Shown: positions 4,538 through 64,000 of the stretch, in pieces
Numbering within the stretch: the first letter of the stretch is position 1
How the letters are laid out: each line of letters begins with the position of its first letter
From: a virus
Direction: 5' to 3' (one strand)
DNA: 64,000 bases
IMG/VR virus record: IMGVR_UViG_3300047509_000037
Location: 32,152-96,151 of that record
Notes under the pieces: model-generated
What the model was told of the DNA's origin: nothing
Databases searched by the model: none
The model's input: the letters and a program-made list of their open reading frames with translations, nothing else
Program-made: the position numbers and the translations under genes

Positions 4538-4700
4538 TCATTGCACGTGCCCGCATTGTAAGCTGGCTCACAAGATGCCCGCCTACGTCTACGCACATTG
4601 GGAAGACGCGTTCACCGTGACGTGTGCCGATGAAGGCGAGACCAAGGGATGCGGCAAACAGTTCGAGATGTTTCAGGGAGAGACCGAATGTATAAACTGA
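4503..4700 (+). CDS. small Zn-ribbon protein
   Basis: GAGGAG RBS; CPHC..TC..GCGKQF. Confidence 0.65.
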   Translation: MTRTTKQKEIASHCTCPHCKLAHKMPAYVYAHWEDAFTVTCADEGETKGCGKQFEMFQGETECIN

Positions 4701-5329
4701 ACGGTAAGAACCTCAGCCTCGCACGTCTCATCCCACGAGGGAAAGACGCGGACAAGCGTTTGAAATATCTCCACGTCAACAACAAGGGCGTCACCGCTGT
4801 CAGCCCCGAACTGGTCGCACGCGTCACACTGCCTGACGGTGTAGCGCAGCCCCAGCAGTCGGTCATCTACCCGCAGGAGTCTCTTGATTCGATTCCGATG
4901 GGAGCACGTGCGCCGGAGAGCAACGAACTGGTGACACTGACTGGAGACAAGCCCGCGTTCACAGGTCCGCACTATCTCGTGCCGATGGTGGACAAGTGCT
5001 TCCCAGAGCCGACAGAGACCACCGCGACGTTCACGTGCAACGGAGAACTTCTCCGCAAGCTGCTCACGGTCGCGTGCGAAGTGTGCAACGACAGCAACAA
5101 GACTCTGCGTCTTCGCATCGTTGACAACGGCAAGGCTCTACGCGTGGACACGTATCGCCAGCCGGGAGAACAAGAATTTTGTGGCGTCATCAAACCAATT
5201 GAGTACGACGGCGATTACATCCCCGGCGAGATTCCATCAGGTACGCCGAAGGTCGAGAAGAAACCTCAGCAGACAGGTCTGTTGCTGAAGACCAGCGCCG
5301 GGAGGAAAATCCGAGGCGAGGGTGAGTAA
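4688..5329 (+). CDS. hypothetical protein (possibly single-domain sliding-clamp-like fold)
   Basis: GGGAG RBS; beta-rich pattern loosely like a clamp domain; ends GRKIRGEGE. Confidence 0.6.
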   Translation: MYKLNGKNLSLARLIPRGKDADKRLKYLHVNNKGVTAVSPELVARVTLPDGVAQPQQSVIYPQESLDSIPMGARAPESNELVTLTGDKPAFTGPHYLVPMVDKCFPEPTETTATFTCNGELLRKLLTVACEVCNDSNKTLRLRIVDNGKALRVDTYRQPGEQEFCGVIKPIEYDGDYIPGEIPSGTPKVEKKPQQTGLLLKTSAGRKIRGEGE

Positions 5330-6518
5330 CGGTTGCTTCCATGAGATGCAGAATGGCGCTACCGCCGTCATCCGGCATCAAATGATTAACGGAGACATCT
5401 GGGTTAGGTGTCTTCGATGCGGCGACACGTGGCACTCCGAGGAGGAGTTCGCAATGAGCACAGGCACGGGGAAAGCGAAATGCAAACACACTCAGTGGAC
5501 CACCGACAAGGTGACCGGGGTGAAGATGTGTACGGATTGCGGCACTGACCTTGCCAAACATCCGAAGTGCAATCACGCCCTGGCGAAAATCGTCATCGAA
5601 AATGGAATGACGAAGACGCAATGTGAGAAGTGCGGAGTGATTGTCACAGAGGGTCCGGTGCAATCCGTGAAGGTTCCGCTGGGCTATGAGAAGCGATTGC
5701 TCCCGATTCCGAACGTGCGCCCCGTCGGACAGTGGGTCAAGGAAGGATTCGGAGCATTCCAGCCGAAGACACGACAGCAAGCGCAGATTCTCATCGACGA
5801 GTGGAACGAAGCATGTCAGACGAACGGCATGAAAGTTGAGTACCGCCTGCCCGTGGTGAATGTTGACTTACGTTGCAAGAAATGCGATACTCTCGTGAAC
5901 GAGACGTACAAGGGCGATGTCTGCCTCTCGTGTCACCTTCAGGAGAAAATGGCAATGGCGAAAGAACCTAAGGTCTCGAAGTCGAACCCCGATTTTGATA
6001 TTTACGGAATGCCTGTCTGGAAGACCAAGAACAAACCCGCGTTCAACGTTAACAGCACTCCGGCGAAACCTGTCACGAAGAAACCAACTCTCATGGTCGT
6101 GCCGAAGGCTCCTGTCGTTCACACCGAGGGAGACATCTGGGAATTACCACACGTCAATGCTCCGTTTATGAGTAAGCAATGGGCGTACCAAGGCAGCGCA
6201 TCGACGCCGTATGTCATCACGCACTACCAGACCAAGCGCGATGGCGCGGTGACGAAAGATGGTTGGGCTTGCTCGTGCATGAATTTTACGCGGAAGACCC
6301 CACGCACCGAATGCAAGCACATCCTGAAGACGATGATGAAGAACGGCACGAAGCCCACGGCTGATGCGAAGCTGGCGGCGGTACCCGATGAGACCCTGAA
6401 GGCGTTCCAGAAGTGGCAGCGCGAACAAGCGGCGGCGGGCGTCCCGGTCGGTGCGGGCGTCGGCGCTGAGAAGGGCAAGCTGAACATGTTTGAGAACAAG
6501 GGGAGGAAAATCCGATGA
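5322..6518 (+). CDS. multi-Zn-finger protein with C-terminal SWIM domain
   Basis: Several CxxC pairs; WACSC..F..ECKHI SWIM motif; second in-frame start with GGAGGAG at 5454. Confidence 0.75.
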   Translation: MSNGCFHEMQNGATAVIRHQMINGDIWVRCLRCGDTWHSEEEFAMSTGTGKAKCKHTQWTTDKVTGVKMCTDCGTDLAKHPKCNHALAKIVIENGMTKTQCEKCGVIVTEGPVQSVKVPLGYEKRLLPIPNVRPVGQWVKEGFGAFQPKTRQQAQILIDEWNEACQTNGMKVEYRLPVVNVDLRCKKCDTLVNETYKGDVCLSCHLQEKMAMAKEPKVSKSNPDFDIYGMPVWKTKNKPAFNVNSTPAKPVTKKPTLMVVPKAPVVHTEGDIWELPHVNAPFMSKQWAYQGSASTPYVITHYQTKRDGAVTKDGWACSCMNFTRKTPRTECKHILKTMMKNGTKPTADAKLAAVPDETLKAFQKWQREQAAAGVPVGAGVGAEKGKLNMFENKGRKIR

Positions 6519-6829
6519 AGCATATCGCAATTTTCAGGGTAGAGGGGTACTCCAAAACGGGAACCGACCAGGCTTTCGTCACGGGGAAAGGCGAGGAGTC
6601 AGTGACCACGCATCTCAAGGCGGACAGTTGGAATCCCGGCGCACGCATCGGAGCGTTCACACTGCACTCGCTGGAGAGCAAAGCACCTGAGTGGAAGGAT
6701 GGTTTCATCGTCACTCTGGAACCGTTGCCACCAAAGCCCGAAGGCGCGGACTACACCGGATATCTAAAGCAGGTAATCGCGGAGAAGCTAGACCCAACTC
6801 CAGCACCGAGCGGGAGAAAAATCCGATGA
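6515..6829 (+). CDS. hypothetical protein
   Basis: ATGA coupling; ends GRKIR. Confidence 0.75.
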   Translation: MKHIAIFRVEGYSKTGTDQAFVTGKGEESVTTHLKADSWNPGARIGAFTLHSLESKAPEWKDGFIVTLEPLPPKPEGADYTGYLKQVIAEKLDPTPAPSGRKIR

Positions 6830-7104: not shown

Positions 7105-7247
7105 GCATGTCAGCCAAGGCAGTTCTGGCGCGGTTCGGCGGCAACGTCACCGCAGCCTGCGATTATTGCGAAACGATGGCGCGAACCTACGCCAACCTGA
7201 CCACGGAGTATCGTGGATACCGTGAGGAGATTCTGAGCCATGTCTAA
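7101..7247 (+). CDS. small hypothetical protein (48 aa)
   Basis: ATGA coupling, GGAGG RBS; MSMSAKAVLARFGGNVTAACDYC...; fills the gap before ligase. Confidence 0.6.
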   Translation: MSMSAKAVLARFGGNVTAACDYCETMARTYANLTTEYRGYREEILSHV

Positions 7248-8154
7248 ATTCCCAAAGCCCATGCTTGCTGAAGCGGTCGAGAACTTCGCCGCTCTCACTT
7301 TTCCGAAGATGGCGTCACCGAAACTCGACGGCATTCGTGGCACCGTTCACGCGGGCATTCTCCGCTCACGGTCACTGAAAGATATTCCGAACGTTCACGT
7401 GCAGAAGAAATTCGCGGGACTCCGCGAAGGGCTGGATGGTGAGTTCATCGTCGGTGACCCGTATGGTCCTGAGGTCTACGACCGCACTCGCCGCGTCATC
7501 ATGGAGTCGGGTAAGAAGACCAACGCGGACGACGTTCGCTACTACGTCTTTGATTCCCAGCCTCAGGATGACGCGCTGCCTTTTCACGTGCGCTACGACT
7601 CCCTGCCGAACGCAGCCGCCGGGAAGACGGATGTCATCGTCGTGCCCCACATTGTTATAAGTAACTTGGAAGAACTGGAGCAATACGAGAACGCGATGTT
7701 GTCGAAGGGCTTCGAGGGCGTCATGCTCCGTGACCCTGTCGGACCCTACAAGCACGGTCGGTCCACCGAAGCGGAGGGCTGGCTTGTGAAGGTGAAGCGT
7801 TACGTCGATGACGAGTGCCGCGTGCTCTCGTGCTACGAGGAGATGGGGAACAACAACGAATCGTTCACCAACGAACTTGGACGCACCGCACGGTCAGCAT
7901 CGAAGGCTGGCAAGACTGGCAATGACACGCTGGGCGGATTCAACGCCGTCGGTCTCACCGGGAAGTACAAGGGCGTCGAGTTCCAAGTCGCGGTCTCCAG
8001 CCTGAAGCACCCAGAGCGCAAAGCAATCTGGGACACGCGTGATGAACAGGTCGGAAAGATTCTGACCTACAAGTGGTTCCCAATCGGTAGCGAAGAAAAA
8101 CCACGTCACCCGATGTTCAAAAACTGGCGAGAAGTCATAGATATGAGCGAATGA
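7240..8154 (+). CDS. lig: ATP-dependent DNA ligase
   Basis: PMLA, KLDGIR (adenylated Lys), LDGE, FD, EGVMLR, KVK, PRHP motifs. Confidence 0.95.
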   Translation: MSKFPKPMLAEAVENFAALTFPKMASPKLDGIRGTVHAGILRSRSLKDIPNVHVQKKFAGLREGLDGEFIVGDPYGPEVYDRTRRVIMESGKKTNADDVRYYVFDSQPQDDALPFHVRYDSLPNAAAGKTDVIVVPHIVISNLEELEQYENAMLSKGFEGVMLRDPVGPYKHGRSTEAEGWLVKVKRYVDDECRVLSCYEEMGNNNESFTNELGRTARSASKAGKTGNDTLGGFNAVGLTGKYKGVEFQVAVSSLKHPERKAIWDTRDEQVGKILTYKWFPIGSEEKPRHPMFKNWREVIDMSE

Positions 8155-24735: not shown

Positions 24736-25073
24736 ACTTGAAGATATGCCCGCACACCGGACAACCGGGGCGGTCAAAATGCAATCTGTGCATCAACGAT
24801 TTGCGTAAGAAGCACCGAGCCGCCGACCCCGAAACATATAGAGGGTACTCCCGAAAGTGGCATCGTAAGAAGTACGGCGTCAACACAGGGGAGCGGCGGG
24901 TGGGAACTTGCCCTTTATGTGATGCGGAAGGCGTCGAACTCCGACCCGACCACAATCACGAAACCAATAAGTTGCGGGACTGGATTTGCGCCCGCTGTAA
25001 CATGGCGTTGGGCTTCATGGAGCAGAACTCGAACCTCCGAAGACTACTCGCATACTTGGAGAAACACAAATGA
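24732..25073 (+). CDS. endonuclease VII-like protein
   Basis: CPLC..DHNHET..RDWICARCNMALG. Confidence 0.8.
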   Translation: MNLKICPHTGQPGRSKCNLCINDLRKKHRAADPETYRGYSRKWHRKKYGVNTGERRVGTCPLCDAEGVELRPDHNHETNKLRDWICARCNMALGFMEQNSNLRRLLAYLEKHK

Positions 25074-55677: not shown

Positions 55678-56751
55678 CTAGATGCCCCAAGGACCGTAAG
55701 GTTGCGCGGGGTTGACTGAGTTGTACGCCCAGCCTGTTTCCATAACGTTTGACATCGGGACAAAGCCCCAATCATCTTGTTCGCGGCTGCCCTGACGAAC
55801 TGCGTTGTCGAGCGCCTGCATCCACAGCTTGAACTCCATGTCGAACTTCGTTCGCAGCTTCGGGTCAGGAGAGAACCGATAGCATTGCGCGAAGAAGCCC
55901 GTCTTGATGTAGGAGAAGTAGTCGTCTGGGATTGGTTCGATGAACTGGTTCAGCTTTGTGAACTGTTGAATCTTTGCCTGTCCAATCGGAGCAATCTGCC
56001 ACACGGGTCCAGTCTGAGAAGGACCGGGGTAGATGCGGAATCCGGCTGCCTTGGGGTTGATAGCGGTCCAAGTGACACTGCCGTCCGTCACGGTCGTTGC
56101 GACGGTAGATGGTTTGGCGAGTGTTGGGAAAACAGGATTCAGGTTCGAAAGGAAGGGGTTCGTGTTGCCACACGTTCCATACGTCGTGACCAACCACAGG
56201 TTGCCGAAAGAATCTTGGACCTGAGTGATGGGGTTGGACGGCATGGACGTTGCGCCGAGCGGACTCGTATAAACCGCGCCGGGACCGGGGTTTTGGATTC
56301 CGGTAAGAGAGTTGATTTGCGAGACGCCCCACGTTCCGAACGTCATCGTGTCGTTCTGCATCCACGCGATGCGGGCGTTGTTGCTTCCGGTGGTTTGCAG
56401 GCTGGTGATAAGAACGTCGCGCCGCACATCGACTACCGCGAAGGGTTTCGGGTATTGTGTCGAGCTAGTGTTCCACGCCCCGCAACTTTCGAGCCAGCCA
56501 AGATTGACCACGTTCGATGCGTAATCTTGCTGCCACGAGTTGATGAAGAAAGGCGGAATGATGATGCGGTTGAACTTGAAATTGAACGGAGACCCTTTGG
56601 AACTCCCCGCCAGCATCGCGGTCATCGCGTCATTGATTGCGGAGAGTGCAACCGTTTCGTAAGCGCCGCCCGTTGGGAGGGTCGGTGCGAGGTCGCCCAT
56701 TGCGCGGGCGATGTCCACGAGGTTCTGCACAGTGTAGCTGGAGTTTCCCAT
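55678..56751 (-). CDS. head-tail adaptor protein (paralog 1)
   Basis: TVQ..ALSAIN..PFNFKFN..QQDY..RIYP.P..QF..PIPDDY. Confidence 0.65.
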   Translation of the reverse strand: MGNSSYTVQNLVDIARAMGDLAPTLPTGGAYETVALSAINDAMTAMLAGSSKGSPFNFKFNRIIIPPFFINSWQQDYASNVVNLGWLESCGAWNTSSTQYPKPFAVVDVRRDVLITSLQTTGSNNARIAWMQNDTMTFGTWGVSQINSLTGIQNPGPGAVYTSPLGATSMPSNPITQVQDSFGNLWLVTTYGTCGNTNPFLSNLNPVFPTLAKPSTVATTVTDGSVTWTAINPKAAGFRIYPGPSQTGPVWQIAPIGQAKIQQFTKLNQFIEPIPDDYFSYIKTGFFAQCYRFSPDPKLRTKFDMEFKLWMQALDNAVRQGSREQDDWGFVPMSNVMETGWAYNSVNPAQPYGPWGI

Positions 56752-56862: not shown

Positions 56863-57519
56863 TTACCGAAGGTTGGTCGAGGAAATGTTCTCGCGGTAAA
56901 CGTCAGCCGCGTCAACCTTCTGACCTTGTTCGTTGAGCGTAGTGAATCGGCACTGGACCGACGTGGACATTGAGTTGCCCGTCGGATACATCACTGCCGT
57001 TTCGTACTGCTCCACAGCTTTGTCAAACTTCGCTTTGTTGAAGCTACCGTCGGCGGGAGCAACGTTGCGACCCTTCGCGTCGAAGAAAAAGTTCTTCTCG
57101 ACCGGAGGATTCCACGTCTTACCGCAACGGAGACAGCGGACCCAGATGTCGCCGTTAATCATCTGGTGCTTGATGACGGCGAACTGCTCACCGTTACCGC
57201 CAGTATGAAGAACACGATTGTCGCGGGCGTTGACTTTGCCGCCCTTGCGATGGGTGCAGATGGAGAACCGATAGTTGTCGGTCGCCTCTTGCTGTGCGAA
57301 CGTGCGACCCTGAGCAGCGCGGTCTTCCTGCAACTGCTTCTCGCGGAGTTCACGCTCTGCGATTGTCGCCTTCAAGTCCTTGATGTGGTACTTGCGTTCT
57401 TCCTGCTCCAGCTTCAGTGCTTCAAGCTGTTGTTTCTTGATTTCGAGTTCGAGTTCGCGGGCTTGCAATTCCGCCAGCTTAATCTGCTCATCGACACTCA
57501 GCGTTTCCTTGTTGCTCAT
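56863..57519 (-). CDS. head-module protein with coiled coil and Zn ribbon
   Basis: AGGAGG RBS; CTH..RCLRCG. Confidence 0.7.
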   Translation of the reverse strand: MSNKETLSVDEQIKLAELQARELELEIKKQQLEALKLEQEERKYHIKDLKATIAERELREKQLQEDRAAQGRTFAQQEATDNYRFSICTHRKGGKVNARDNRVLHTGGNGEQFAVIKHQMINGDIWVRCLRCGKTWNPPVEKNFFFDAKGRNVAPADGSFNKAKFDKAVEQYETAVMYPTGNSMSTSVQCRFTTLNEQGQKVDAADVYRENISSTNLR

Positions 57520-57526
57520 ACTCCTC

Positions 57527-58237
57527 CTATGATTTGTCCAACATGCTACCTTGGTTGCGGAAGTGCTGCAACGTTTGGTTGTACCGATGGAAAGCAGGCG
57601 TCGTAGCGGGCTTCCCAAAAAGTTCTTCGGCTTTCTTCTCGCTGATGACTCCCTTGAGAATCAACTGGAGAAGGCACGTGCGCCAGCCGCGATACTTCTC
57701 GGTGGTGGGCACGCCGTGCTCGTCGAAGCGCATGACGCTGAGTTCAGGTGCGAACCCAATCATGCACCAGCAGCCGACTTCCGGCGTCTGGTTGTCATGC
57801 TTCTGAATGACGAGCGTAATCTTTCCGGCTTGTGGATGCTGGCGATACCAGCACTTCACTCCGGCTTCACGCAGCTTGTTGATGAACACGACCGAGTGCA
57901 TGATGCGCCCGATTCGGTCCCCTGCGTACTTGTACTCCTCAGGAGTGACCCAGCGATATTCTTTCGCTGCGTTCTCCGAGGCTTCCTGCAATCGACAGAG
58001 TTCTTCTTGCGTTTGGCTCGACGGTTTCGCGTCACTCACGTTCTGAGCGTACTCAGCCATCGCTTCGAGCATCTCCGGGGAGTCGGTGTCGAGTTCCGAA
58101 TCGTAAGTCTCCCAAGGTGCGAGGTCGTTGGCGCGAGTCCCTTGCCGTGCCGCAATCTCCTCCGGCGTGAGGTTGGGAATAACAGCTTGTGGCGCAGCGT
58201 CTTCCCAACGCTGCATATATTCTTCGTTTGTTGGCAA
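57527..58237 (-). CDS. hypothetical head-module protein
   Basis: AGGAGG RBS before TTG; RGWRTCLLQLI motif. Confidence 0.7.
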   Translation of the reverse strand: MPTNEEYMQRWEDAAPQAVIPNLTPEEIAARQGTRANDLAPWETYDSELDTDSPEMLEAMAEYAQNVSDAKPSSQTQEELCRLQEASENAAKEYRWVTPEEYKYAGDRIGRIMHSVVFINKLREAGVKCWYRQHPQAGKITLVIQKHDNQTPEVGCWCMIGFAPELSVMRFDEHGVPTTEKYRGWRTCLLQLILKGVISEKKAEELFGKPATTPAFHRYNQTLQHFRNQGSMLDKS

Positions 58238-58323
58238 CCTTCCTCCTAAATTGTGTCGGCTCTCACGCTGGCTCTCGAAATGGTGCGCGGAGAGCCGTCC
58301 ACAGTTGATGCGAGAATCCAGTC

Positions 58324-58665
58324 TCATTCCCCCGGGAGCAAGCCGTGGTGAGTGCTAGTGCTTTCCCCGCGTTCTAGACCGCCGGGTTCCGCCGTCGGCT
58401 CCGCTTCCGGTAATCCACCTTCCCCGGTGCCTGTTTCTGTTGCCGCATCAAATTCGCCGTTACAAAGTTGCTTGAACAATTCGTCGTTCGCTTGCGCCTG
58501 TTGAATCTGGTTTCGCAAGCTGGTTACCGAACCGCGCAGTGCGCTGTTCACACGCCGCAAAAGGCGGGCAGTGTTGCGCGAGACTTCTAGTTCTCCGCGC
58601 AGAATATCGTTGGACTCCACGAGTCCCGCGATGATGATGTCTTTGTCCTTTGTCCCCTCCGACAT
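58324..58665 (-). CDS. coiled-coil hypothetical protein
   Basis: GGAGGAG RBS. Confidence 0.65.
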   Translation of the reverse strand: MSEGTKDKDIIIAGLVESNDILRGELEVSRNTARLLRRVNSALRGSVTSLRNQIQQAQANDELFKQLCNGEFDAATETGTGEGGLPEAEPTAEPGGLERGESTSTHHGLLPGE

Positions 58666-58684
58666 AGGCTCCTCCATTTTCAAT

Positions 58685-58726
58685 AAAGTAAAAGTGCTCA
58701 CTAAACTTTCTAGGTTTAGTGAGCAC
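58685..58726 (-). terminator. Rho-independent terminator
   Basis: GTGCTCACTAAAC/GTTTAGTGAGCAC then TTTTACTTT. Confidence 0.75.
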
Positions 58727-58741
58727 GATGTTGCGTCTCCC

Positions 58742-59299
58742 TTACGGGATTACCGTGACGATAATCTGGACGTAGATGAAGTTCACAGGTTCCGCTTCGT
58801 TGATGTCCGAAGGACCATTGCCAAGCGTATTATCGAAGGTCGGGAAAGAAACTTCGACAATCGCCTGACCGACGCCACGAGACGTAATCAGTCCGCTAGA
58901 ACTGACCGACACAATCTCAGCCGTGTAGCCCGCGAAGGCACTCGGCTTATACCACGCAGGCGGTGAACCCGCCGCGTTGTTGGGGTCGCCGTAAGATACG
59001 TAGACCGGGGAGCCGACCGGAGAGTATGCGTTGTTCTTCACGTCAACTTCGGTGGTGGTCAACTGGCAGGTGTTAGAGAACCCGCCCGCCGAACTCAGGC
59101 TGAGCGTCAGGGCGTATTGCGCGACCGGGAAAGTTCCGCCCGCCGTTGCACCGATACCCTGACCGTTGGTGCCCGATGCACCCGGATGAACCGTAGTCCC
59201 GCCGCTAGGACTCGTGATGCCCGTTCCAGAAACCTGAACGTATGCTGCTACACCCAAGCCGTCCGTGGGGACGTGTTGGGGATTGGGATTTCCACTCAT
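58742..59299 (-). CDS. Ig-like capsid decoration protein
   Basis: IVSVSSSGLITSRGVGQAIVEV (Big_2-like); near capsid gene. Confidence 0.6.
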   Translation of the reverse strand: MSGNPNPQHVPTDGLGVAAYVQVSGTGITSPSGGTTVHPGASGTNGQGIGATAGGTFPVAQYALTLSLSSAGGFSNTCQLTTTEVDVKNNAYSPVGSPVYVSYGDPNNAAGSPPAWYKPSAFAGYTAEIVSVSSSGLITSRGVGQAIVEVSFPTFDNTLGNGPSDINEAEPVNFIYVQIIVTVIP

Positions 59300-59300
59300 G

Positions 59301-59924
59301 TTAAATTTCCTTTTCTGCGAGGCTCTTAGCCCGCGTGAGAATCTCGGTGACTCTCATGTCCACAAGCAGAGACGGAATCTGGTGCCCATAAGCCCTCGTC
59401 AACGCCATTTCCAACCAAGCACGAATCGAAAACTTTGACTTGCTGGCTTGACATGACAACATCGAACTTTCGGGATGTGAACTACAGCAGGGGACGAGGT
59501 TGCCGGGAATGTGACCGAGAGACGAATCAATGCGGTCTAAACCCCAAACTTTTCCTTCATCGGGAACCCGACCGCAATAAGTACACGGTCTGGGATTTCC
59601 CAACTTGTCGAGGTAATAGTGAACTGCCTCGGTAGGGTTGGAGAACCCGAAATCACGTCCTGCCACTTTGTCTGCCCAACGCATTCCAAGATACCTCTTA
59701 CGAAGTATCTTGTAATATCCGTTTGACATCTGTTTCGCACGGTTAGAAAACTCCATGCCCGCCCGCGTGTATCCTACGAGCGTCCCATCTTTTCGCCACT
59801 CAACTGCCCAGTATTCTACCGTCTCTACGGGAATTCCCGTTCGGTCAGATATTTCCTGTCGGCTTCGTCGTTGACGCAAACCTTCTAAAACTTTTTGTCG
59901 TATTTCTTCAGTGTGTGCTTTCAT
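59301..59924 (-). CDS. HTH plus HNH homing endonuclease
   Basis: SRQEISDRTGIP HTH; CTYCG..GLDRIDSSLGH.PGNLVPCC. Confidence 0.8.
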   Translation of the reverse strand: MKAHTEEIRQKVLEGLRQRRSRQEISDRTGIPVETVEYWAVEWRKDGTLVGYTRAGMEFSNRAKQMSNGYYKILRKRYLGMRWADKVAGRDFGFSNPTEAVHYYLDKLGNPRPCTYCGRVPDEGKVWGLDRIDSSLGHIPGNLVPCCSSHPESSMLSCQASKSKFSIRAWLEMALTRAYGHQIPSLLVDMRVTEILTRAKSLAEKEI

Positions 59925-59998: not shown

Positions 59999-61027
59999 TT
60001 AGCTGATTGCAGACGCAGCGTCGATTTGACGCATACGGATTGTAGTGTCGGGACCGAGTGACGTAGTAAAATGTACGCGATACGCAGTCCACCCCGGAAT
60101 CAAACCTTCGGGGTCTGCAACACTCGGTGCGGCGTTCTGCACGATGTTGCAGGAGATGTTGCGCCAGTCGCCATCACCGTAAGCAGTGTCCTGCTTGGCT
60201 CCGAGGTTGATGGAGAAGATACCATCGCGCCCGAAGATGTAGGTGCGGAGAGCCGTCAGACCAGTCACCCCTTGGAAGTTCGAGGTCTTGGTCACGAGGT
60301 TCGTCTGGAAGAACCGAACGCCGCTGGTCGGCAGTTCAATCTGTTCCATCAAATCCACGCTGACGAGTTCGTCCATGCGTTGCTGACCCTCGACAGTGTG
60401 CTTCAGAATGTCGATAGGGCTGTCGTTGCTGTTGTCAGCCAGCACGTCGCCAAGGGCGAACGGGTGGATAACTCCGGCGAACGCTTTCCCGCCGTCGAAC
60501 GGCATGACCGAGCGACCCGCAAGCGACTGAACGCTGTTACGGATTTGGCTCAGGGAAAGAGCGGTGAAGCTGGAAGTGCTGGAAGCAGCCAGTTTCACGA
60601 GCACGGATGCGTCAATGCTGTTCGCGCCGTCAGCAGTTGCACGGACGAGAGCAGACAGGGACTCACCGAGGCGGTACGACATTTCCTTCGCGCAATTCTC
60701 GACGGTGTTGTCAATCGCCGTAGCGAGGGACAGAGACGAGAAGTTGGCGTAGTCAGCGTACTCACCAATGGTCGCGGTCGTGGTCAGCACGTTGAGGCTG
60801 AGGGACGAACCGACGGTGCCTTCGGTTGCTTGGACAGTGTTGGCTGCCAGAGGAACGTACATGTACAATTCGTACTGGTTGCCGCTGCCCACAGGCAGTT
60901 CGAGGCGCTCCGAGCAACGGATGAACGGAGTGTTTGCCTTCAGGTTCTCACGGAACTTTTTGTCGTAATACTTCACCGTGGACTGGGGCAGGTTAGAAAG
61001 CTGGTTTCCTGCGGGAGAAAAACTCAT
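59999..61027 (-). CDS. major capsid protein (HK97 fold, N4-gp56-like)
   Basis: YYDKKF..L, TEGT..TIGEYADY..S, GVIHP...D, GVRF.QT; follows scaffold; strong codon bias. Confidence 0.85.
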   Translation of the reverse strand: MSFSPAGNQLSNLPQSTVKYYDKKFRENLKANTPFIRCSERLELPVGSGNQYELYMYVPLAANTVQATEGTVGSSLSLNVLTTTATIGEYADYANFSSLSLATAIDNTVENCAKEMSYRLGESLSALVRATADGANSIDASVLVKLAASSTSSFTALSLSQIRNSVQSLAGRSVMPFDGGKAFAGVIHPFALGDVLADNSNDSPIDILKHTVEGQQRMDELVSVDLMEQIELPTSGVRFFQTNLVTKTSNFQGVTGLTALRTYIFGRDGIFSINLGAKQDTAYGDGDWRNISCNIVQNAAPSVADPEGLIPGWTAYRVHFTTSLGPDTTIRMRQIDAASAIS

Positions 61028-62969: not shown

Positions 62970-64000
62970 TTACGCAACTGTAGGCAGTTGACCTTGCAGC
63001 CCACCCGCACTCGGCACCCCTTCAACCGCTTCGCTCATGCCGCTGGCTTTCGCCGCTTCACGAGTGATGTCGCGTTTGATTCGGTTGTCCGATGCTTGGT
63101 CTTCCAACTGTTGCTTCTGTTGGAACTTCTGCTGGTCGCTTTGCTGTTTCGCCTGCATTTGCATCTGCATCACCGCAGCCTTCGAGTTGGCATCGCGCTT
63201 CTTCTTCATCGCGTCTGTCATCGGCTTGATGATGTCGTTTTTGTTCTTCCACTCCGATGCTTCGAGCCACATGGAAATGATTGGCTTGAAGTCGATGTAC
63301 TCCTCATTGATGTCAGCCAACGATTGCTGAATCTGAGGGTTGTTGAGAATCTGAGTGAGCATAACCATCGACTGAGCCATCGTCCGCTTTGCAGCGAGAG
63401 ACGAACCCGCCAGAACCTCGTATTCGATTTGAGCGTCGTGATAGTCCTGAATGTTGAACTCGTTCAGGAAATCGTTGCCCATCTCTTTGCCGAGAATGTG
63501 GAGGATTGCCGCATCGGACATGACGTTGAACACGAGCATGTCGATGATGGACAGGAATGGTTTGAAGACCTGTTCGATAAAGTTGTCGAGAGGTCCGTCA
63601 AGTCGGGTCGCACTCGCGCCTGCGAGAATGTTTGCGCCCGATGCCGAGCGTCCCATACCAGACCGAGGTCCAGCGGAACTCCCTTGGACAAGCTGCTGGT
63701 CTGCGCCCGAAGACGATTCCGTAGCCTGTTCAGATTCTTTCAGCGCCGCCCAGATGTCGGACGGAACTTTCGGAGACTCCAGCAAGCGGTACGACTTCTC
63801 AACGTTGGTCACTGACATGATTTTGCCCAAACCAGTTTTGATGGTCTGTGTCGGTGCGTTGTCGTCGCGGTTGCGGAGGTAAACCGGGTTGACTCCGTAG
63901 CTCAGAATTTTGAGGATGGAGTTGATGGTGCCTTGGTCAACACGTTGGTTCTGACCAACGATGAGTCCGAGACCCATACCGTAGAATGCTTTCGGTCGGT
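62970..64000 (-). CDS. portal protein, C-terminal part (5' truncated)
   Basis: FYGMGLG..Q..N, ESSSGAD..QG..RSASGA, Q-rich C-terminal coiled coil; upstream of scaffold and capsid. Confidence 0.8.
   Translation of the reverse strand, partial: RPKAFYGMGLGLIVGQNQRVDQGTINSILKILSYGVNPVYLRNRDDNAPTQTIKTGLGKIMSVTNVEKSYRLLESPKVPSDIWAALKESEQATESSSGADQQLVQGSSAGPRSGMGRSASGANILAGASATRLDGPLDNFIEQVFKPFLSIIDMLVFNVMSDAAILHILGKEMGNDFLNEFNIQDYHDAQIEYEVLAGSSLAAKRTMAQSMVMLTQILNNPQIQQSLADINEEYIDFKPIISMWLEASEWKNKNDIIKPMTDAMKKKRDANSKAAVMQMQMQAKQQSDQQKFQQKQQLEDQASDNRIKRDITREAAKASGMSEAVEGVPSAGGLQGQLPTVA

Follow-up and report, generated by a model that had tools for sequence, protein, structure and literature searches.

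A predicted zinc-ribbon module occurs in an early SWIM-like protein and a late coiled-coil protein of a soil phage

The DNA analysed here (the window, 64,000 nt) corresponds to bases 32152-96151 in an IMG/VR virus record of 96,151 bp, complete according to CheckV. Replication-type genes, e.g. a DNA ligase (7240-8154), are found on the plus strand up to about 28 kb. Structural genes are found on the minus strand, including a portal/adaptor-like gene (62970-63977) and the gene for the major head protein (59999-61027). Throughout, the labels 'early' and 'late' refer solely to gene content and strand. The sole cultured relative that we found is Tunturiibacter phage Tunturi_3 (PP885686.1), a podovirus of 97.6 kb from tundra soil with an acidobacterial host (PMC11924767). 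The features discussed are the following (with their basis in brackets):

4649-5329, plus strand: upstream early gene of 226 aa with a GRKIRGEGE end, syntenic with the SWIM gene in relatives (ORF list, loci of relatives)
5313-5329, plus strand: GAGG 5 nt before GTG 5322, where the frame from GTG overlaps the upstream gene up to its TAA (5327-5329) by 8 nt, GTGAGTAA (sequence)
5322-6518, plus strand: early SWIM-like multi-zinc protein, 398 aa if started at GTG 5322 or 354 aa if started at ATG 5454, with a GRKIR tail (ORF list, homologues P0002-P0027, alignment A3)
5322-5453, plus strand: N-terminal extension of 44 codons with a full short-loop module (C5, H7, C30, C33) and an acidic SEEEF tail (orthologous modules in P0033 and P0040, runs X2 and X3)
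5364-5432, plus strand: early copy of the 23-aa core, a beta-hairpin and CxxCG knuckle (ORF translation, BLASTP)
5440-5456, plus strand: putative internal start, consisting of GAGGAGGAG (which also encodes EEE), a 6-nt spacer and ATG 5454 (sequence; database call P0001, P0002-P0004)
5481-5636, plus strand: modules 2 and 3, shorter CxH...CxxCG units (C54/H56/C70/C73 and C83/H85/C101/C104; alignment A3, hhalign)
56863-57519, minus strand: late protein of 218 aa from ATG 57519 (AGGAGGAG upstream), with a long helix (9-87) and a C-terminal zinc domain (homologue starts, alignment A2, AF2)
56866-57270, minus strand: zinc domain of 135 aa, with a long-loop module and a helix/beta subdomain carrying an ETNNSMS motif (alignment A4; AF2 pLDDT 86, pTM 0.74)
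57112-57180, minus strand: late copy of the 23-aa core (ORF translation, BLASTP)

The two matching peptides of the original prediction are both present: the early ORF (5322-6518, plus strand) and the late ORF (56863-57519, minus strand) share 21 of 23 residues, and BLASTP aligns the two ORFs with 25/37 identities at a pairwise E of 7e-14. The early coordinates given at the time (5364-5432, plus strand) stand, whereas the late interval, placed at 57111 on the minus strand, contained one base too many and is to be read as 57112-57180. In a six-frame search of the entire 96,151-bp genome the 44-aa extension matches only itself and the late gene (E 1.3e-14), and an HMM of the module likewise recovers just the two known copies in all six frames. 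A marginal HMM match at genome positions 24889-25029 is out of frame and was discarded as noise.

At the DNA level the two cores are identical at 56 of 69 nucleotides. The differing codons are mostly synonymous (nine, against two that are non-synonymous: R/K and D/K), with a Nei-Gojobori dS of 1.21, a dN of 0.087 and a ratio of 0.07, so that the earlier claim of selection acting on the protein sequence is borne out. A role for the repeat at the DNA level was rejected (identity 81%, longest identical runs 11 nt).

The shared string is the second half of a larger unit. Each core ends in CxxCG, and on its N-terminal side there is a CxH (C5/H7 in the early copy, C88/H90 in the late), indicating a zinc-ribbon module with four putative ligands; the loop from CxH to hairpin has 16 more residues in the late copy. 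The original prediction had not noted that the match covers only half of the four-ligand module. In AlphaFold models of the late protein and of its zinc domain the core forms a beta-hairpin running into the CxxC (in the zinc-domain model, strands 32-36 and 42-46 lie immediately before the CxxC). The module thus shows what characterizes a zinc ribbon, two conserved ligand pairs, the second of which sits on a knuckle after a beta-hairpin.

Known families resemble the module only in part. The closest in layout are MJ0042/Zn_ribbon_4 (TIGR02098, PF13717), which also have a beta-hairpin followed by a CxxC knuckle and a second ligand pair upstream. Their weak matches cover exactly the shared core (late residues 113-137, i.e. 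30-54 of the 135-aa domain), at scores below the curated cut-offs (15.2 against 20.9 bits for TIGR02098, 12.3 against 30.3 bits for PF13717). For the early protein, a query of the N-terminal 113 aa reaches 9.8 bits against a zinc-ribbon profile (E 1, residues 26-37), and the 44-aa extension alone matches no zinc-ribbon profile. Unlike in these families, however, the first ligand pair is CxH instead of CxxC, and the KHQMINGD.W stretch is peculiar to the phage family. The treble-clef repeats of DUF4379/CapR (PF14311, PF21817) came up through [VI]RC.RCG..W repeats in P0034, P0037 and P0070 (phmmer with the extension). Here the likeness is local to the knuckle, the repeats of those families being CxxC...CxxC and occurring in nuclease-associated proteins. 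Only such unrelated multi-repeat proteins, retrieved because of the local likeness, match their models; at E up to 10 neither PF14311 nor PF21817 is matched by the extension, by the N-terminal 113 aa of the early protein or by the late domain.

The late ORF as listed spans 56863-57618 (minus strand), but alignments with homologues, 30 of which (all from IMG/VR) start near ATG 57519, together with the AGGAGGAG-ATG site place the real start at 57519. Homologues occur on 30 IMG/VR contigs (51-69% identity) with conserved gene order, and members of this family share full-length homology, a long helix followed by the ETNNSMS zinc domain, and a conserved position in the structural block. In Tunturi_3 the corresponding protein is gp11 (XOB77192.1, a hypothetical protein), which has 31% identity over 71% of the query (E 7e-15) and whose gene has the corresponding place, upstream of one for a 'structural protein'; it is nonetheless distant from the window protein and itself unannotated. 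The searched text of PMC11924767 reports no virion proteomics of Tunturi_3. The late partner had been called a head-module protein; its gene does belong to the structural block (2.5 kb downstream of the capsid gene), but this position does not by itself show it to encode a head protein.

Within the late family the module stands out by its conservation. C88, H90, C129 and C132 do not vary among 19 late homologues (alignment A2), and in the zinc domain alone (alignment A4) the CxxC pair (C46, C49) is likewise invariant, with C5 and H7 conserved to at least 90%. The 23-residue core is near invariant across late homologues, with DNA differences at 5-23 of its 69 bases, and the hairpin is almost unchanged in proteins that are otherwise 48-69% identical (A2). 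Such near invariance points to a constrained surface or core: it may reflect a binding surface, or packing against the equally invariant C-terminal subdomain. Structural comparison adds no relative. The full late model has no Foldseek match at E <= 0.001 in PDB and BFVD, and VIA-align returns generic coiled coils only (Z about 7); the model of the 135-aa zinc domain (pLDDT 86) has no Foldseek match in PDB and none at Z >= 2 in a wide VIA-align search. Neither the late protein nor its zinc domain has a usable match in the ESM Atlas. PDB profile matches of the late domain are to designed TPR proteins, on the EY..A..ETNN helix, and were rejected as spurious. The late protein, the early protein and the neighbouring genes at 4649-5329, 57527-58327 and 55678-56751 all lack an above-cut-off family in Pfam, PHROGs and NCBIfam.

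In several relatives a short paralogue of the zinc domain (a domain of 114-122 aa without coiled coil) is encoded 1.3-1.9 kb upstream of the late gene:

L002:4862-5227, L012:4941-5282 and L021:4343-4684: short late-domain paralogues in relatives

The window has no such paralogue in the interval 58324-59924; the capsid gene of the window is directly followed by an HNH/endonuclease VII-like gene (59301-59924).

In the family of the early protein the two halves behave differently: the C-terminal half, with its CxxC...CxxC finger, SWIM-like CxC...CxH and GRK[FI]R tail, is conserved, and the N-terminal half, which contains between zero and three CxH...CxxC modules, varies strongly. The SWIM-like CxC-x11-CxH (C317/C319/C331/H333) is invariant in 15 family members (A3) and lies in the most conserved region. 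Although this signature (CxC-x(n)-CxH) is that of SWIM domains, the Pfam SWIM model (PF04434) is matched neither by the whole early protein (E up to 0.1) nor by residues 277-398 (E up to 10), and neither its N-terminal zinc-ribbon array nor its GRKIR tail belongs to the SWIM type. A weak match to Y4YQ_C (PF23893) is seen just upstream of the SWIM-like site (window 6270-6320), and the JGI annotation of one homologue reads 'predicted nucleic acid-binding Zn finger protein'. A PDB sequence profile search with the early family gave no matches, no homologue of the early SWIM protein was found in the phage collection searched, and scans of viral contigs with the early protein and of genome contigs with P0033 gave nothing closer.

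Downstream of the extension, module 2 of the early protein aligns with the NG..W.RC..CG module of other SWIM-family members (A3), and profile-profile alignment places it in the ancestral module position of the family. Neither module 2 nor module 3 scores against the module HMM, i.e. no homology is detectable by HMM. When the late domain (A4) is compared with the early family (A3), hhalign reports a probability of 94.6%, but over the 16 columns of the knuckle only, which argues against any deeper homology between the two.

The module itself is far more widespread than the two copies of the window. An exhaustive phmmer/HMMER search with the 44-aa extension yields 57 representative clusters at E <= 0.001, and the same core is found in at least five protein contexts. 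These are the late proteins (30 IMG/VR loci and Tunturi_3 gp11); the short late-domain paralogues without coiled coil; the N-termini of SWIM-family proteins (P0007, P0008, P0010, P0019, P0020, P0027, P0033 and P0040, and at loci L050, L053 and L058); small proteins consisting of module plus tail (P0039, P0066); and a 299-aa protein of relative G001 (L042:877-1776, minus strand). Many SWIM-family members carry a single NG..W.RC..CG..W module at their called N-terminus. We conclude from these searches that the module would constitute a newly recognised, unnamed domain family of the zinc-ribbon kind, specific to Tunturi_3-related soil phages of about 96 kb, which form a clade. The original proposal of a portable module under selection at the protein level agrees well with the dN/dS of 0.07 and with the many protein contexts.

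Two lineages can be distinguished. In the long-loop lineage, comprising the conserved late coiled-coil protein and its short paralogues, the module would be an integral part of the 135-aa domain, whereas in the short-loop lineage it appears as a free-standing N-terminal or internal add-on of early proteins, mostly ones with GRKFR-type tails, in variable copy number. The window would hold one copy of each. The early copy has all traits of the early type, i.e. an N-terminal position, 11 residues from the CxH to the strand histidine and a DTWHSE tail, which it has in common with P0033 and P0040; the 11-residue spacing is also seen in P0007, P0008, P0019, P0027 and P0053. Other short-loop modules (P0027, P0053, P0057 and P0087) contain HQMINGD/E.W.RC as well, and because they share the HQMING reading, the high identity between early and late copies is largely family consensus. 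The recurrence of the core in at least five contexts and 57 clusters, together with the early-type lineage of the early copy, leads to the same view, namely that the 21/23 identity mostly represents a family core under strong purifying selection.

It might be argued instead that the early copy was recently duplicated or converted from the phage's own late gene, or recently captured from that of another phage. The 21/23 identity to the late-type consensus is what such an event would leave, and the early core of the window is indeed closer to the late type than those of other early modules, which reach about 11/23. The synonymous sites are saturated, however (dS 1.21), and the phage's own late gene, at 56/69 nt, is no closer to the early core than the best foreign late gene (57/69). 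Compared with 20 late DNAs the early core shows 12-22 differences (mean 17.0), more than most late-late pairs (mean 11.9). The early copy, P0033 and P0040 furthermore agree in the loop length of their N-terminal modules and in the DTWHSEEEF tail, and a (poorly resolved) tree of 30 modules groups these three outside the long-loop clade, which has a support of 92/87. A recent origin is therefore extremely improbable. By this divergence the two copies are old paralogues, with no recent copying, gene conversion or capture. The synonymous divergence from the late genes could also predate a transfer, having accumulated in the donor gene.

The earlier description of the motif as part of a 44-aa N-terminal extension ahead of a second strong start at 5454 is confirmed, with GAGGAGGAG positioned 6 nt before the ATG. 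What this means for translation has to be weighed. The database gene call (P0001, 354 aa) begins at ATG 5454, and in P0002-P0004, the closest full-length homologues (63-69% identical), the called protein has no extension and starts with a conserved MST... N-terminus. The ribosome-binding site of GTG 5322 is only GAGG and that of ATG 5454 is far stronger. These observations would suit an untranslated relic, i.e. a module fragment that landed between two genes, of which only ATG 5454 (at the MSTG methionine) is used.

On the other side, P0033 (a called protein of 189 aa) has the orthologous module at its called start, 32/43 identical (74%) without gaps, next to a SWIM part in which 122/148 residues are identical (82%), and P0040 shows the same architecture at a greater distance. 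The frame of the extension is open, in phase and begins at the stop of the upstream gene; in relative G001 the ATG of the SWIM gene overlaps the stop of the same upstream gene (ATGA) in a manner similar to GTG 5322. Neither a promoter nor a terminator consensus is present in 5330-5453. In the simulation, at least eight random changes leaving no more than two amino-acid changes in the core occurred with P = 0.0007. Every early variant seen (window, X3, P0033 and P0040) retains the four putative zinc ligands as well as the NGD.W.RCLRCGDTW.SEEEF part.

Strain variants bear on the same question. In run X2, an independent run, the extension is identical to that of the window and the frame intact; no RNA data set was among the sequencing runs listed. 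Run X3, from a near-identical strain (a single, short, low-depth contig of 176 nt), has 13 substitutions in the extension (5332-5433) without stop or indel and is identical in the flanks; 10 of these nucleotide changes are non-synonymous (in seven codons) and three synonymous, a roughly neutral ratio that would fit a relic. For comparison, 8 of 9 X3 differences in the upstream gene are at third positions. The near-neutral changes suggest weak constraint on parts of the early copy, or diversification, and the X3 stretch may be either a recombined allele or a product of local diversification. Five of the differences fall within 7 nt (5381-5387) and turn HQMI into HHWR in the first strand, which is invariant in the late proteins; among close early relatives this strand reads HQMI in the window, HKMI in P0033 and HHWR in X3. 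A DGR-type origin was rejected, given that the substitutions are not specific to A positions.

In soil run X4 a contig of 164 nt (again single, short and of low depth) skips 429 nt (5360-5788), i.e. 143 codons, in frame with GTG 5322. Lost by the skip are the module 1 hairpin, both further modules and ATG 5454, and an in-frame variant lacking this ATG speaks against the exclusive use of the downstream start. P0033 in turn has no equivalent of residues 46-250. Judging from such variants, the N-terminal half of the early protein appears structurally very plastic between strains.

Taken together, translation of the 44-codon extension is very probable, whereas an untranslated relic is unlikely; the same applies to the untranslated captured fragment that the original prediction had named as its refuting case, which is disfavoured by the called N-terminus of P0033 and the four retained ligands. 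The early module occupies precisely the stretch from the upstream stop to the older start (MSTGTGKAKCKH), and the 398-aa form would probably be made from GTG 5322 by coupling to the upstream gene. Given the strong ribosome-binding site, it is plausible that ATG 5454 gives a second isoform (probably 354 aa, lacking the module), in line with the two isoforms considered possible before.

A precedent for this arrangement is gene 4A/4B of phage T7, whose primase-helicase is made in two collinear forms from in-frame starts. There, too, the zinc motif is at the N-terminus of the long product only, and an internal site and start lead to the short product. The two systems have nonetheless no relation in sequence or function, and dual initiation is here proposed from the sequence alone. 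The early gene is in any case a concrete candidate for dual translation initiation, of a type in which gene callers miss the longer form, as happened in the database call.

Regarding function, the best-supported reading is that the module would act as a zinc-stabilised binding or structural knob on proteins of different modules; most likely it would bind nucleic acid or a conserved protein. The original prediction had proposed a link between the early protein and head assembly or packaging. This finds no support, as the core recurs in at least five contexts and the early copy is of the early-type lineage. A role of the early protein as mimic or inhibitor of a virion protein is equally unsupported, the change from HQMI to HHWR in X3 speaking against a strictly shared binding surface.

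A related reading holds that the module is an interaction surface common to early and late proteins, by which the long isoform competes with, mimics or recruits the late partner, as a temporal switch or an assembly link. The almost invariant hairpin of the late proteins and the 21/23 core residues kept by the early allele of the window would both suit such a surface, and through the internal start the proportion of module-bearing to module-less product could be tuned. Yet the same core is present in many unrelated proteins, the late invariance may be explained by packing against the protein's own invariant C-terminal subdomain, and the first strand differs in P0033 and X3. Since this strand varies between close early relatives, early and late copies need not bind the same thing. 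We consider a shared surface decidedly improbable.

A further observation is that a SEEE stretch followed by a methionine occurs in the window, P0033 and P0040, with a different downstream sequence each time. Conceivably the module is a self-contained cassette that lands exactly on the start codons of SWIM genes and brings its own restart (SEEE as ribosome-binding site), so that both forms are made and the early form, sharing a surface with the late coiled-coil protein, competes with it in a timed manner for one partner. In that case both a module-bearing and a module-less form would arise from each recipient gene. We regard this combination as quite improbable. The reading that we prefer, with fair confidence, is that of a clade-specific module in two old lineages, the early copy of which is probably translated and possibly accompanied by a second form. 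Otherwise the findings amount to ordinary domain shuffling, with no new mechanism and no demonstrated link between an early function and virion assembly.

The analysis defines a zinc-ribbon domain family that is unannotated and absent from Pfam, PHROGs and NCBIfam. In the widespread but almost unstudied large soil phages concerned (whose hosts are probably acidobacterial) the module is among the most conserved protein elements. The early proteins are meanwhile being rebuilt: even near-identical strains differ by gain, loss or in-frame deletion of modules.

Some minor observations concern the C-termini and the protein of G001. Three consecutive early proteins of the window end in GRKIR (5300-5314, 6501-6515 and 6812-6826), the first continuing with GEGE. 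In relatives the same families have GRKFR or GRRFR ends, the tail of the SWIM family being preceded by a conserved KLN[LM]F, and a GRKFR-type tail is also present on the small module-only proteins P0039 and P0066. By its sequence this tail looks like a shared C-terminal docking peptide. The 299-aa protein of G001 combines two CxxC-type fingers, a short-loop module with a late-like core, a coiled coil and a GRRFR tail, and its gene adjoins a GNAT acetyltransferase-like gene.
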